Source: Eledone cirrhosa
Lineage: Eukaryota
Length of the DNA stretch: 64,000 nucleotides
Direction of reading: 5' to 3'
Assembly (NCBI GenBank): GCA_964016885.1
Contig: OZ024741.1
Span: forward strand, 225,866,001 to 225,930,000
The notes below the pieces were generated by a model that was not told the DNA's origin, searched no databases, and was given only the letters and a program-made list of their open reading frames with translations. Of the stretch, positions 3,933-63,935 are shown piece by piece. Made by a program: the position numbers and the translations under genes. Positions within the stretch are counted from its first letter, which is position 1. The number at the start of each line of letters is the position of its first letter.

Positions 3933-4178
3933 ATATAATAAGAGCTCGGTTGTAGTGCCGGAATTTAAGTGCGGTATGGGTCGAAGAGTGCTCGACTTCG
4001 GAGGTAGGAGCTAAAGAACAAAGTGGTTGTGGTAAGATACGAGGTGGACCATAACGCACCAGAGTACTCAATACTTAGGGTAGTAGAGTGGGTAATAAGA
4101 AAAGAGTCAGGATCTCGACGGCTGAACTCCGGCTAATTCGTAGATCACCTGTCGGAGTCCTGACTCTTTTCTTATATA
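3933..4178 (-). mobile_element. Penelope-like terminal fragment(s) in (TA)n, with a short inverted repeat and two bulged-hairpin motifs; related to 63513-63702
   Basis: Shares aggtggaccataacgcacca.agtactcaatactt with 63540; inverted repeat 4095-4120 / 4150-4175. Confidence 0.65.
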
Positions 4179-4229
4179 TCTATATCTATATCTATATGTA
4201 TATCTATATCTATTTATCTATCTGTCTAT

Positions 4230-4578
4230 CTAGAGGTTACATGGTGGACAACATTGAGAGGACCGAGGACAGATGCCTTTCTTTCCGGACAACAACTCAT
4301 TCCCTTCTTTAGAAGGAGAATCAGAGTGGAGTGAGAGTACTGCACCCCAGTAAATTTTCTGAAAGGTGGGTGAATGTGGCAAAAGGAAGAAAGGAGCACT
4401 TGCACAGCATGCACGGGGTATAAAATAACCCATTTGTAACGCCTCCCCCCTATTGGGGATTTCGATTGTTGAATTTGTTTGTTGAAAATATTTTTTTACA
4501 CGATTGCATGTAAAATCCCCGGCATATGTCCTTGTTTTGTATCCTTCTCTTGTGCGCCCTTGTGGCAAATAAAGAAAT
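4230..4578 (+). mobile_element. Tx1/L1-like LINE 3' fragment in (CTAT)n
   Basis: Similar to the end of ORF2 and the 3' UTR of the Tx1 copies at 28800-29290 (gcccttgtggc.aataaagaaat). Confidence 0.75.
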
Positions 4579-5104
4579 CTATCTATCTATCTATCTCTCT
4601 ATCTATCTATCTGTCTATCTAGTTATATACTATATATATATATATATATATAATTGCCACTTCTTTACAGAAGACAGCCATCTCGTCAACGCGTTTCCTG
4701 GTATGATGAACCACCGGCAACTGCAGGTTTCTGGCCAGGTTGATGACTTATCAGGCTTTGTTTAGGTCAACCTTTCTCGTCTCTTCCCATGTGGTATGGG
4801 TGACCAATGCCCCCCCCCCCACCCCAATGCTGCTAGATTTATGACTAAGTACTACTAATAGGTCAAGTTTGCACACGTTACCACGTGAAGAAATATCTGC
4901 ACACAAAGACGGCAATGCTACGTGTTTCTGCACACATAGCACCGACTCCATCCCAACAGCTATGTGTTTAGTGACAAGTCAAGAAAAGATAACAGCAGAA
5001 TTACGAGGATCAAATGTGTTATTGTCATGGAGTTTAACCTCTCCAGCGGGTGTAACTGTACTCACCACGCTTGGCCAATTGCAGGTTGGTGAGGCTATTT
5101 AGCC

Positions 5105-5322
5105 CAGAATTGTGCTACATGCGGTCCGCGGGCCACACGTGAACCTTTACAAGCAAACCTGCGGCCCGCACAAGGGTTTTTACAGCACGAGCATGGTTTA
5201 TCTTCGTAATATAAAGTAAAAAAATGAGTTGTAATGTGTGCAATTAGTTGACGTGTGTGGCCCTCAGACAACACATATGTGACCCACGTGGCCCTCTGGG
5301 GACCCGCATTTTGACATGCCAG
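5105..5322. mobile_element. hAT-type MITE
   Basis: Degenerate cag...tttgacatgcc.g termini; 8-bp TSD atttagcc/atgtagcc; homologous to 15982-16200. Confidence 0.8.
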
Positions 5323-6105
5323 ATGTAGCCCATAGTTGACTCTGTGGAGTTCCTCGGCCATTTGACAGCTCTTGTTTTTTGTGCTGTTGGGTTTCCACTT
5401 ACCTTCCGCACCACGGCAGGGTATGGTGGGGTAGCCGGTTTAGCGACCGACCACCCGAATAGGTTGTACTGGGCTACAAGTGGCCAGTAGAAAGCATCAT
5501 CATTATCAACTTTACCATCATTTTATATCTGCATTCAATGTGGCATGGTTGACATTGGCTGTAGCAAGACATGTTAGAGAGATCTCATCATGCTCATTCC
5601 TTCCATATTTGCCATGATTACTATGACCGGATGCCCTTCATAACACCAACAACATTACTGTATTTAGTGGTTTCCTTTAACCTGGCACCAGCATTACCAA
5701 ACTACAGCGAGTACAAGACTTCTTTTATTGTGATACCAGCACGAGGGAGATTGCCATATACGCAGAAAACCGAGGAGTTATATATATGTAAACATTGAAA
5801 TGGTTGTTATCCATTTGTTCAGTTCATATCAATTTTACCGCCTGGTATTAATTAGGATGATTCATATTATATATTATATATAGATTTAGATGATTCATAG
5901 GATGATTCATATTATATATATATATATATATATATATATATATATATATATATATATATATATATATATATATATATATATATATATATATATATATATA
6001 TATATATATATATATATATATATATATATACACACACATACATATATACATATCTATCTATCTATCTATCTAACTATATATATATAGTTAAATATATATA
6101 TATTT

Positions 6106-6140
6106 CTAGCTGAGCTACCAGGTGATACCCGGGTATTTTA
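6106..6140 (-). mobile_element. Helitron-like 3' terminus (non-autonomous element extending rightward)
   Basis: Minus strand reads cccgggtatcacctgg-tagctcag-CTAG: GC hairpin followed by CTAG. Confidence 0.6.
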
Positions 6141-6914
6141 TGAAAGTTACAATATATTTGGCACACATTACAAAATGTTTGACCATTCAAATATGATTGC
6201 TGAATTTTAACCAAAGTAGGAATTATAGCAGAACATTTATTGCCGTTTGGTCAAAGTAAATCATCTAGATAAAAATATTAATTTTCTCCAGTTGTGATTT
6301 TTTGAATACTGTTACCTATTACAGTCAGCATATATATGATTTACTCATAGATGAATCATTAGGTATGTTGTCAGTGAAAAGGCCATGACGAAAAAAATAC
6401 ATTTAGATTTTTTTTTATTTATCCTTTTCTTTCTCCTTATTTATTTTTTACTCAATCTGAACCTCTGAAATTCAAACAACATGTAAAGACTATTTTAAAA
6501 ATCATAAATAAAATAAGAAAATAAATTTAGCATTGGTTTATGATTGAATGAAGCATTTACTTACTCATTTCTGTAATTTGGGGGAAGTGTATTTAAATGT
6601 GTACACTATAGCTTTCACCAATCTTTGCCTCTATGGCAGTAGGATCTTGTTTGAGGGAGATTTGTTTTCTATTTCTATTAGCTATACCAACAGTTATAGT
6701 GGCTCACATGACATACATAGATGCTTACACACACATGTATGTGTGTAAGACAGTTGTTTGTGATTTGAAATGGATTTTGCTAATATTTCTAGTAGATCGA
6801 GTTATCACATTCCTTTTTGCTTCATACATATATATACATACCTGAGCAAGGAAGGTGGGATTTGAAAGAAATTTGGCTGCTATTTCTACCTAACAAAGTC
6901 CTCACTTATACTAC

Positions 6915-61330: not shown

Positions 61331-61499
61331 CAGCAGATTTTCCTATTCAACTGTGTACAATTGATTTGGCTGGATTTCCAAGAGAGACCAACTGAGTTCG
61401 TGAATGTTATCCAGAACATCATGCTCGCAGGTGGGCTTTACCCGTAAAATCTATTCAATCACTCTTTCCCAAGACATTCTATCCACATGTCTCTCGATT

Positions 61500-62000
61500 T
61501 GGAGAACCAGAGGTTTTATCAGGAACAACACCCTGATCTACGAGCTACGAACCCTATCGGATAACGATACTCCTGAGATCCTTCGGACGAACCATATTTT
61601 AACCACATGTATTCGCGATCGTATTCCTTCAGACATTACATTTGCTTTTTTTTAGACGAGGAGTGCCTGTTTTCGCAGCGCTGGTTTCCATTCCTGCCAT
61701 GAACTATTCGTCAGCAAAACTATCCAGTGCATGTTGGATATCGCCTTCGGCTGATTTAAATAATAGCAAAGTCATCTGCAAATACCAGCTGGCTCATCCC
61801 ACATCCACCAGCCGTGGGATGGCACTTCCAACTCGCTTCTGCATGTCAATCCTGTTTCTGAAGTTTATGAACAAGAGAAGTGAGATGAGGTGCATCTGTG
61901 GGAAAAGACTAACCCTTTATTGGAAAATAGAGTGTTCCACTGTCGCAACGCCCCCAAGAATAATGCACATCTGTCCGACATGTTAACATGTTAGAAAACT
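61500..62000 (-). mobile_element. Old RTE-like reverse transcriptase relic
   Basis: SLLLFINFRNRI and SQLVFADDFAII in different frames. Confidence 0.55.
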
Positions 62001-62831
62001 TAGATACAAAAATTATCCTCTGGGTGACTCTGGATCTCTGGAAAAACACCAAATCAATCGCAATCGGGAGTGATGATTATAGAGTATTTATATATATATA
62101 TTGTTATACTTGGGGAGGGTCATATTTGTGAAATATTGCCAGATTGTGTAATATTGCCAGATTTCATATAAAAAAAACTCGCAAAACTAATATATATATA
62201 TATATATATATATATATATATATATATATATATATATATATATATATATATATATATATATATATATATATTGTTATACTTGGGGAGGGTCATATTGTTG
62301 TAATAATATTGCCAGAAATAATAATGGAACACACTCACTGTTTGGTTGGGTTTCGCTTCTGCATCTTTTATATCTCCATAGTTAATTCATTTGGCCAACA
62401 ATGTTTATCATTGACTGACCAACGGTCGAAAATACAGATATAAATATATATATATATATAGTATAATAAAGTTCTTTCGTTGCACATCTGCAACATCATC
62501 AGTGGTACTATTATCATGTTTCCTCCTATTGTATTGCAATGTATTGTAGTGTCTACGCCATTTTTATTTTATCTTTTTTTTTTTTTTTTTTTTCCCCAAG
62601 TATAACAACATTTGTTTCGACATATGATTTCATATCAAAAACCTCGCAAAATATACATATATATATATATATATATATATATATATATATATATATATAT
62701 ATATATATATATATATATATATATATATATATGCACCTTTAGCCGCATGTAATAAACAGCCGATACCTCTGAATAGCAAGACTCACATTTTAGCCTCAAT
62801 AATATTGAATATACGTATATATACATATATA

Positions 62832-63175
62832 GAGTAGTACCTCCGTTCACGAATTTATTCGGTCCTGAACGCCGTTCGTCACCCGAAATGTTCGTAATGC
62901 GGAACTATCTTAACCTTATGAAATGCTGAGAGGGAAATACAGTGAGAGAGAGACTGTATATGAAAGGGAAATAGATATCACCATAGTAACTAACTACAGA
63001 GCAGGTGACGCTTTCCCGCCAATACTCGCAGCTTGTCACCAACCGTTGTCACCAACCGGCTTGCGTGTTCGTTACTCGAGACAGCGTTCGTCAGCCGATA
63101 CGTTTTATGTTCGGAAAGATTGTTCATGAACCGATTTGTTCTTGATGTGTGGCGTTCGTGAACTGAGGTTCAACT
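62832..63175. mobile_element. Tc1/pogo (Tigger-like) MITE
   Basis: Terminal inverted repeats .agtagtacctccgttcacgaa / ttcgtgaactgaggttcaact with TA flanks. Confidence 0.7.
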
Positions 63176-63512
63176 ATATATATATTTAGGCATGTATAAG
63201 AGTGGGGTTGTAAAGGCACATTACTTGCTTCGTGATGCGCAGGTCCACTCAACTGGCAAAAATGGGTTGTGCCACTAATTCAAGCTGAATCTCCCTGAGA
63301 ACTATGTTCAGTTACTTGTAAGTGAATTTTATGAGAATACATTTCAGTTGCTCAAACAACAGGAAAATACATCGTCGGAACCGACAGAGGTCAAGTAGTA
63401 TGTGTCTGTGTACGTATATATATATAGAGAGAGAGAGACAGACACACACACACACACACACACACACACACACACACACATATATATATATATATATATA
63501 TATATATATATA

Positions 63513-63702
63513 TAACGAAGGAAATGTGGTAAGGAACCAGGTGGACCATAACGCACCAAAGTACTCAATACTTGAGGTAGTAGAGTGGGTAATAGGAACC
63601 AGTAAGACCCCGACAGCTGAGCTCAAGCCGTTTCGACGGCTAATTCCCGAATTAGCCGTCGAAACGGCTTGAGCTCAGCTGTCGGGGTCTTACTGGTTCC
63701 TA
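63513..63702. mobile_element. Fold-back Penelope-like terminus with a hammerhead 3' half in both arms
   Basis: Perfect ~53-bp arms centred near 63647; GAAA-cggct-tgagctc-agctg-TC; bulged hairpin at 63562-63587. Confidence 0.75.
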
Positions 63703-63720
63703 TATATATATATATATATA

Positions 63721-63935
63721 CGTAGGTCCCGGGTTGAGTCAGGGATAACCACAGTAAGTAAGGTACTCAATACATGGCAGAGTAAAATTTTTTTATTTTA
63801 TAGAAGGAGCTTCTACAGGACTAGTACTGTTTCATTCAGATGAAATCTTCAGGAAGCTGGGTCCTGAACATTTCATCTGAATGAAACAGTACCAGTCCTG
63901 TAGAAGCTCCTTCTATAAAATAAAAAAAATAAAAA
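63721..63935. mobile_element. Fold-back Penelope-like terminus with the complete cassette
   Basis: Arms ~63787-63852 / 63864-63930; (TA)n on both sides. Confidence 0.8.
63808..63858 (-). ncRNA. Type I hammerhead ribozyme
   Basis: agcttc CTGAAGA tttc-atct-gaat GAAA cag-tactagtc-ctg TA | gaagct; 6-bp stem I, then AATAAA. Confidence 0.82.

Follow-up and report, generated by a model that had tools for sequence, protein, structure and literature searches.

(TA)n insertions of Hydra-clade Penelope-like elements end beside one or the other of two tandem bulged hairpins of the 5′ UTR

The window analysed here, a stretch of 64,000 nucleotides (nt) from Eledone cirrhosa (NCBI GenBank assembly GCA_964016885.1, contig OZ024741.1, positions 225,866,001 to 225,930,000 of the forward strand), carries 17 instances of a small hairpin with a 2-nt bulge, which an initial annotation made from the letters alone had singled out as a recurrent structure near (TA)n repeats. 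Our results suggest, with a probability of roughly 70%, that this structure is the first (hairpin 1) of two hairpins standing in tandem in the 5′ untranslated region (UTR) of Hydra-clade Penelope-like elements (PLEs), that insertions end just upstream of either hairpin, and that each hairpin docks one subunit of the reverse transcriptase (RT)-endonuclease (EN), so that one RNA would give rise to two cDNAs. The general layout of these elements is hammerhead, hairpin 1, spacer, hairpin 2 and ATG. The hairpin is a real, conserved and apparently undescribed cis element of a known retroelement clade.

Members of the Hydra clade have been described as carrying a hammerhead, targeting (TA)n and inserting as inverted arms with a one-sided tail (PMC8557442, PMC3846280, PMC4209133). 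The PLE tail is an optional extension of 30-40 bp at one end, present on one arm of an inverted insertion (PMC8557442, PMC3846280). How inverted insertions with a one-sided tail originate is, according to Craig 2021, an open question that needs an in vitro system (PMC8557442).

Results

Insertions end just upstream of a hairpin, with one arm per hairpin

We compared 12 full-length references with 1.0 Mb of random genome and obtained 107 matches ending at (TA)n, plus 20 ending without it. Forty-eight of the 107 junctions lay 0-12 nt 5′ of hairpin 1 (type A ends, mode -7) and another 48 lay 0-12 nt 5′ of hairpin 2 (type B ends, modes -6 and -9). Head-to-head pairs in the same sample combined one end of each type in 23 of 24 cases, the remaining pair being A+A and none B+B; chance predicts 12 mixed pairs, and 23 were reached in 1 of 100,000 shuffles. 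A larger set, for which some loci had been selected by their B end and which probably contains one duplicate, comprised 36 abutting pairs, and 34 of these were A+B.

The spacing of the two hairpins equals the length of the tail, 70-99 nt in 12 families of this genome, and the tail was found at one end only in 23/24 random and 34/36 abutting pairs. The initial annotation had placed the hairpin 40-90 nt from (TA)n. This holds for 14 of the 17 window instances, which are followed by (TA)4 at 41-85 nt, but the constant distance is the 3-12 nt that separates a junction from the hairpin it precedes. Since the 40-90 nt represent the spacer up to the uncopied hairpin 2, the PLE tail consists here of hairpin 1 plus the spacer.

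Among the 34 mixed pairs, the arms started within 10 nt of each other in 16, often at hammerhead stem II. The A arm extended further 5′ in 14 pairs and the B arm in 4, and the arms did not overlap in 3, one of them in the window (55694-55845). The A arm is therefore not a copy of the B arm. Furthermore, the hairpin nearest to an end is never contained in the DNA of that end; its site of action must therefore be the template or the donor, 3′ of the start. The equal use of both sites, together with the one arm contributed by each, argues that both are used in one event and on one molecule.

The same ends were seen in other data. Contigs from public runs, compared with a tandem array of full-length F2 elements (L286), had (TA)n loose ends 3 and 5 nt before the two hairpins (279 and 68 contigs at the two sites in run X1), and summed depth dropped about 300-fold beyond hairpin 2; the source sample may be among these runs, and depth cannot be read as copy number. 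Of the 12 informative ends from other animals, 9 lay 0-6 nt before a hairpin; three were read by eye. TAT or ATA stands directly 5′ of 46 of 60 hairpins, compared with 12-19 of 60 in control windows, which leaves the exact junction uncertain to within a few bases.

Neptune-type elements of the same genome also end at (TA)n, and the hairpin was absent from all 26 of the first (TA)n flanks shown (30 loci, 3 without a (TA)n flank and one dropped), several of these flanks being internal microsatellites rather than true ends. Because these ends lack the hairpin, it is not a generic (TA)n-targeting signal, and that reading was rejected. A Neptune-type inverted end pair at 23834-24139, together with L378, L382 and L390, has two alternative (TA)n ends about 120 nt apart. 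Near the longer end, two Neptune families have a short GTGT-loop-ACAC stem, which may be the own signal of that clade.

The carriers are Hydra-clade elements by their protein motifs

The broken RT fragment of the window (44235-45144, minus strand) gave 33,566 first-look candidates genome-wide. A near-complete relative, L061, has an open reading frame (ORF) of 715 aa with RT and GIY-YIG (YRDDG at 346, VYxC..YIG at 587). Its 5′ UTR contains, in order, a hammerhead-like core, the exact hairpin found at 63765, a spacer, a short second hairpin and the ATG, and the F1A copy of the window ends 7 nt before this short second hairpin. Thus, what had been taken for a 3′ signal is present twice in the 5′ UTR, between hammerhead and ATG.

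L061 carries RWR and DKT. Across 58 aligned homologues we found RW[KR] in 55, DK[TS] in 58, DKG in 3, the CxCX5C linker in 55, CCHH in none, C-terminal CxxC in 56 and CxH in 57. Hammerhead-like cores are predicted by pattern in the pseudo-long terminal repeats (pLTRs), and (TA)n junctions are present. Judged by these motifs, the carriers are Hydra-clade PLEs and therefore neither Naiad nor Neptune. The Naiad assignment (the initial annotation had named Naiad-type elements as targeting (TA)n) implies an N-terminal endonuclease, CxC/DKA and no hammerhead, and was rejected because the endonuclease is C-terminal and hammerhead-like cores are present; Neptune was rejected because its CX2-5CxxC linker and endonuclease CCHH are both absent from L061. 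A Pfam scan of the L061 protein found neither an RT nor a GIY-YIG family; two of its listed homologues carry PF01541.

A double-hairpin pattern matched the genome 583 times on the forward strand, versus 141 for its control, and 35 of 50 such loci (20 hand-picked to cover families) continue into a Hydra ORF with about 24-64% identity to L061, depending on the segment. Through these loci, families F1A, F2, F3, F5, F7, F10 and F10b were linked to autonomous elements, and F4 and F6 were likewise linked, one F6 locus (L336) running on to hairpin 2 and the start of a Hydra ORF. Consequently, 13 of the 17 window instances, initially attributed to unrelated small elements, are truncated pLTR ends of separate autonomous Hydra families. 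An ORF link was sought and not found for F9 (55570) and F11 (59020).

The genome holds more than 10 Hydra families, whereas Craig 2021 lists one from octopus (PMC8557442). In L286 (G000:C1:91476000-91485999) full-length F2 elements form a tandem array with a period of about 3,543 nt, and the ORF matches residues 6-712 in one piece; Hydra elements are generally <3 kb, F2 being the sole unit measured. A divergent Hydra-like family, F17, was observed at L094 (G000:C3:200000001-200010000), with about 35% identity to L061. It has a version of the hairpin with a 1-nt bulge and the same two-end pattern.

The hairpin covaries across families and animals

The homologue search returned 1,413 proteins, and the 58-sequence alignment was used to retrieve 78 metagenome loci and 12 loci on contigs of metagenome-assembled genomes (MAGs), presumably animal DNA within those assemblies. 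L229-L240 are Hydra PLE ORFs in contigs filed as bacterial MAGs or as a bivalve gill symbiont, which probably reflects contamination with host DNA. The tandem hairpin pair is visible by eye in the metagenome and MAG Hydra 5′ UTRs: the 2-nt-bulge hairpin occurs in 40 of 48, compared with 4/48 ORF windows and 11/48 antisense, and hairpins with other bulge sizes occur in 4-11 of the 48. A search of IMG/VR did not find related loci.

After collapsing 86 elements to 41 families without mutual UTR similarity, 34 families had at least one anchored hairpin and 26 had two. Sixty-one hairpins were chosen by the lower-stem sequence alone and the upper stem was then tested (one spurious anchor was later dropped, leaving 60). 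The first upper pair forms in 58/61 at a bulge of 2, versus 2-19 in other registers, with C-G in 41 and U-A in 16. Upper positions 2 and 3 pair in 41/58 and 33/42 with several pair types, values not reached in any of 10,000 shuffles; at position 5 pairing is at chance. The bulge begins with U in 60/61 hairpins, and the consensus reads GCUC, a paired stem with a free loop, UH, GAGC and AC. The initial annotation was right in proposing a conserved, covarying structured element tied to PLEs, hammerheads and (TA)n.

On the protein tree, a quick tree of our own loci alone, hairpin 1 has gone from C-G to U-A or back at least 9 times; of 7 independent pairs, 6-7 changed together (p 0.016-0.031) and none changed in opposite directions. 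The first pair of hairpin 2 is fixed as C-G on this tree. In a model-fitted alignment, double changes occur at 6 of 8 pairs, including A-U/G-C and two lower-stem U-A to A-U changes, and sliding the partners by 1-3 columns reduces pairing from 95.5% to 13-55%. A covariance model built on 8 seeds placed 106 of 110 matches in a sense 5′ UTR or terminal repeat and none within an ORF. The top 11 matches of this model in the window were all among the 17 known instances; it missed 6 of these, mostly with long loops.

In agreement with the view that the motif had gone undescribed, Rfam 15 gave only microsatellite-driven sub-threshold matches among the 150 listed for the window, hammerhead-like cores scoring nothing, and two matches only (E 0.42 and 0.93) for 20 clean Hydra loci. 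Inspection by eye of published consensus sequences revealed both hairpins, unannotated, at the 5′ end of Hydra-1_Ajap, hairpin 1, also unannotated, near the 3′ ends of Hydra-2_Amil and Hydra-2_Ajap, and hairpin variants in Hydra-1_Crog.

A non-coding partner element retains both hairpins

Two of the window instances (48991 and 49539) belong to F8, a 548-nt unit whose longest Met-initiated ORF is 35 aa. The 40 best copies are 98-99% identical. F8 retains both hairpins and both end types, and a three-unit tandem (L352-L354, G000:C28:84522673-84527044) has one A end and one B end. The copy at 48920-49647 opens with an inverted A arm and then runs through hairpin 1, hairpin 2 and the body to a second hairpin 1 and a B end at (TA)n. 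Non-LTR retrozymes, non-autonomous partners of PLEs, are marked by a type I hammerhead in each unit and by circular RNA (PMC7229834; bioRxiv 10.64898/2026.07.22.740005). F8 resembles them in being short, non-coding and tandem-forming and in having terminal signals in common with autonomous PLEs; it has only a degenerate hammerhead-like core, near 49390.

Occurrence in the window and enrichment over chance

The frame RYUC, 2 nt, GARY is present at all 17 positions listed by the initial annotation. The upper stem comprises 2-7 contiguous pairs in 15 of them; at 60889 and 61149 the first upper pair is T.T, i.e. broken, and the lower stem at 22251 is not predicted when folded in isolation (pair probability 0.06). 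The instances at 4066, 3990 and 48991 have no (TA)n within 200 nt because those copies continue through hairpin 2. AATAAA was found within about 50 nt upstream of 7 of 16 instances checked.

With a strict descriptor, 14 of 43 window matches lay 30-100 nt before (TA)n, compared with 2.9 on average and at most 8 in 100 dinucleotide-shuffled controls. A looser descriptor placed 21 of 62 two-nt-bulge matches before (TA)n, while with bulges of other sizes the figure was 4-13 of 39-57. In a random 400 kb, (TA)n was found 30-100 nt downstream of 39/132 two-nt-bulge matches (background 8.7%), compared with only 6-14 of 84-116 for bulges of 0, 1, 3, 4 or 5 nt. Over the 3.0-Gb genome a tight pattern gave 59,317 forward-strand matches versus 909 for the reversed-pattern control; counts on the reverse strand are inflated by overlapping starts. 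In a search using the 4065 extension, the display pattern matched 1 of 30 loci.

The features of the window are as follows (w/o strand where an insertion has two arms).

3990..4011, minus: hairpin 2 of the 4066 copy, a separate instance in the initial list
4066..4089, minus: hairpin 1 of an older F2-type copy reading through both hairpins
4130..4174, plus: A-type arm of the 4066 copy, inverted, with approximate limits
11525..11620, plus: F7 type A end with hammerhead core and AATAAA, stopping 7-8 nt short of the expected hairpin 1
17369..17677: head-to-head insertion of F3 with the A arm on the left and the B arm on the right
17594..17613, plus: F3 hairpin 1 (L275, L288)
22165..22648: head-to-head insertion of F4 with the B arm on the left and, on the right, the A arm containing a hammerhead-like core
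22251..22324, minus: F4 hairpin 1, long loop (L404 and L419 run to hairpin 2 and a Hydra ORF)
27140..27189, minus: F5 hairpin 1, long loop (L263)
27225..27254, minus: F5 hammerhead variant core; an inverted copy begins at 27342, plus
44102..44147, plus: F6 hairpin 1, within an A+B head-to-head insertion at ~44023-44188
44235..45144, minus: broken Hydra-clade RT fragment, 80-83% identical to the L061 ORF
47956..47982, minus: F7 hairpin 1 (L271, L282)
48042..48085, minus: F7 hammerhead core, then AATAAA
48920..49647, plus: F8 non-coding element, 548-nt unit
48991..49014, plus: F8 hairpin 1, GUUC/GAAC lower stem
49108..49132, plus: F8 hairpin 2, outer pair U.C, absent from the initial list
49539..49562, plus: F8 hairpin 1 in the terminal repeat
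55570..55591, plus: F9 hairpin, without link to an ORF or second hairpin
55694..55845: F12 head-to-head insertion, arms non-overlapping (A -104 to -7, B +27 to +83 relative to hairpin 1)
56558..56600, minus: hairpin 1 of a second F6 copy
58035..58059, minus: F10 hairpin 1 (L272)
58117..58146, minus: F10 hammerhead variant core; an inverted arm at 58280-58359, plus, stops 8 nt before hairpin 1
59020..59046, minus: F11 hairpin with AG bulge, possible long hairpin 2 in L319, without ORF link
60889..60913, plus: F10b degenerate hairpin 1, first upper pair broken (L273)
61149..61173, minus: hairpin 1, likewise degenerate, of another F10b copy, which lies opposite the first on the far side of (TA)n
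63514..63700: F2 head-to-head insertion, B arm and A arm, fold-back at hammerhead stem II
63563..63586, minus: F2 hairpin 1, family linked to autonomous elements
63721..63935: F1A head-to-head insertion, left arm type B, right arm type A, both at (TA)n
63765..63783, minus: F1A hairpin 1, identical to the 5′ UTR hairpin of the autonomous element L061
63819..63852, minus: hammerhead-like core upstream of F1A hairpin 1, pattern match, predicted
63948..64000, minus: F12 type A end without hairpin, cut by the window edge

Successive (TA)n tracts within 500 nt (63514-64000) carry insertions of three different Hydra families. The two near-identical F10b copies at 60768-61300 share the change that breaks the first upper pair and are possibly a local inverted duplication. 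A further family, which has a hammerhead and a fixed (TA)n end but lacks the canonical hairpin, occurs at 21905-22138 (plus), 23428-23726 (minus) and 62272-62502 (minus). Helitron-like fragments lie at 7066-10220 (minus) and 59680-60374, with a Pif1 domain (Pfam) at 7069-7722. A long interspersed nuclear element (LINE) with apurinic/apyrimidinic endonuclease and RT (Pfam) spans 31409-35500 (plus), interrupted by a LINE-like fragment at about 32710-33375 (minus). The segments 2425-2880, 27910-28836, 29479-30617 and 37503-38324 we take to be further RT-element fragments.

Discussion

Our results suggest, at somewhat better than even odds, a programmed form of twin priming: each RNA would present two RT-docking hairpins, a dimer would sit on both, and each subunit would start one cDNA upstream of its hairpin from a cut strand. 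A read-through transcript would carry the 5′ UTR of the next unit at its 3′ side, and the protein dimer would bind both hairpins there while the endonuclease cuts both strands of a (TA)n tract. TA-ended primers would then anneal to the short UAU or AUA just 5′ of each hairpin and be extended, leaving the hairpin itself uncopied, and the two, usually short, cDNAs would be joined head to head. The arm begun at hairpin 2 would carry hairpin 1 and the spacer as the one-sided tail, and it would be this arm that the initial annotation had picked out. Its suggestion of a role in RT recognition or priming is plausibly correct.

In support of a twin start, the Poseidon element PAc has internal RT starts at two adjacent sites that bound the tail and requires RNA downstream of them (PMC11167929); both strands are cut and a dimer is predicted (PMC11167929). 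These features agree with the model proposed here for Hydra elements. PAc resembles them in that both starts lie downstream of the hammerhead; it differs in belonging to another clade, in having its starts inside the ORF at an AC-rich stem-loop, and in that no repeated binding motif is defined in the accessible text (PMC11167929). In the text of its supplement, passages on the stem-loop were not found; the figures may bear on a paired motif.

Several observations weigh against our interpretation. Eleven of the 107 (TA)n junctions and 3 of the 12 ends in other animals lay elsewhere, 48 of 96 ends had no partner found within 1.5 kb, and 2 of the 36 abutting pairs were A+A. A canonical anchor is missing from 7 of the 41 families, upper position 2 is paired in just 16/28 examples of hairpin 2, and no canonical hairpin was seen by eye at the 5′ end of the published Hydra-1_Obim. 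In F1A and F1B hairpin 2 is reduced to a 4-bp GCAC/GUGC stem, F17 has its 1-nt bulge and hairpin 2 of F8 has a mismatched outer pair, yet all of them make precise ends. The antisense strand has the lower minimum free energy in 43/60 hairpins, and the initial statement that the wobbles are G.U on this strand does not stand, since 15 G.U are matched by 9 A.C across the 60 family-level hairpins; wobble and folding energy were thus discarded as uninformative for strand assignment. The PAc paper reports no primer-template homology, unlike the UAU annealing proposed here (PMC11167929). Finally, every mechanistic step is inferred from DNA.

A different reading of the ends is that hairpins in a single-stranded DNA intermediate direct cutting or resolution by the GIY-YIG endonuclease, in which case the ends would be cut sites and not starts. 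We consider this unlikely. It draws on Craig 2021, where the tail is ascribed to EN-mediated resolution of an intermediate (PMC8557442), on the PAc paper, where EN recognition in D. virilis Penelope is cited as requiring the tail (PMC11167929), and on the near-palindromic 3′ strand with its flank (GAGYRCUC); it stays a rival because wobble and folding energy fail to single out the RNA strand. However, duplex DNA is ruled out as the site by the free loop of about 2-60 nt and by the bulge on one side only, the genomic ends of PAc match its in vitro RT start sites (PMC11167929), and non-overlapping arms fit two primings more simply.

It is improbable that the hairpins serve packaging, translation or RNA stability and adjoin the ends only because UA-rich patches anneal the (TA)n primer. 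Their place in the 5′ UTR next to the ATG, the TAT or ATA before most of them and the precise ends made by weak hairpin-2 variants would all suit such a role. Nevertheless, other TAT/ATA patches in the UTRs are rarely used, 96 of the 107 junctions falling in two 12-nt windows, the contribution of one arm per hairpin is left unexplained, and a role in translation does not account for the retention of both hairpins in the non-coding F8.

We give still slightly less weight to a model with a single start, at hairpin 2, and self-primed copy-back ending at hairpin 1 by arrest or trimming, which would make the type A ends stops. Strict A+B pairing is predicted here as well, self-priming has been proposed for head-to-head PLE junctions (PMC3846280), and the 16 pairs whose arms start close together, often at hammerhead stem II, would fit. 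Against this, the A arm has sequence missing from B in 14 of 34 pairs, 3 pairs have no overlap, and the long arm of F8, even a three-unit tandem, can be the A arm. Chance, or simple descent of a few abundant repeat families with unselected structure, is hardly credible: it is true that members of one family are not independent of each other and that the lower stem hardly varies, but 41 families without mutual UTR similarity keep the register, compensatory changes are scattered over the tree and pairing collapses when partners are slid in the model-fitted alignment. Pol III box B and splice-site readings were dismissed by eye, as spacing and conservation do not fit.

In twin priming of L1, two primings from both cut strands generate an inverted 5′ segment, and the second site is opportunistic. 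The Hydra elements differ in that both sites would be fixed by RNA structure and are used about equally (48 and 48). Bulged stem-loops that recruit an RT and fix its start are known as hepadnavirus epsilon, the 3′ stem-loops of LINEs and short interspersed nuclear elements (SINEs) and the stems of telomerase RNA that bind telomerase reverse transcriptase; the Hydra hairpin, unlike these, lies 3′ of the start on the template, is uncopied and occurs twice, and a sequence relation to them is not expected.

The elements correspond to the Hydra clade of Craig 2021 in their protein motifs, C-terminal GIY-YIG, hammerhead, (TA)n and inverted 5′-truncated arms (PMC8557442). The tail resembles the known PLE tail in being present on one arm only, and is unlike it in its 70-99 nt, its composition of hairpin 1 plus spacer and its limits, both at a fixed distance from a conserved hairpin. 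The accessible text of Craig 2021 does not describe a 5′ UTR hairpin, and "hairpin" and "stem-loop" occur 0 times in the text of its supplement (PMC8557442). Neither the hairpin pair nor the rule of one arm each was found in the literature searched, subscription papers and Repbase notes being mostly outside that search, nor in the accessible parts of PMC13282606 and PMC9977147; "hairpin" occurs 0 times in the main texts of PMC7229834 and bioRxiv 10.64898/2026.07.22.740005.

The hairpin also marks a class of repeats that is easily mis-filed as unclassified SINEs and whose ends in this genome number of the order of 100,000. In Octopus vulgaris, 893 recently active "unclassified SINE" families have been reported (PMC13282606, Table 1), and these could include Hydra terminal stubs.

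PLE RTs are the RT group closest to telomerase. The present work provides a candidate cis signal for them, about 25 nt long and covarying, with exact predictions for both start sites, and Hydra-type twin hairpins ahead of the gene are now known from the elements of many marine animals, metagenome loci included. With the positional rule, it can be tested directly how the PLE tail and inverted insertions arise, and the pair would represent the minimal cis requirement for non-autonomous partners. If our interpretation is correct, the twin-priming rule would explain both the head-to-head insertions of PLEs and their one-sided tail, other clades would use paired motifs of their own, and any RNA ending in both hairpins could be mobilised in trans.

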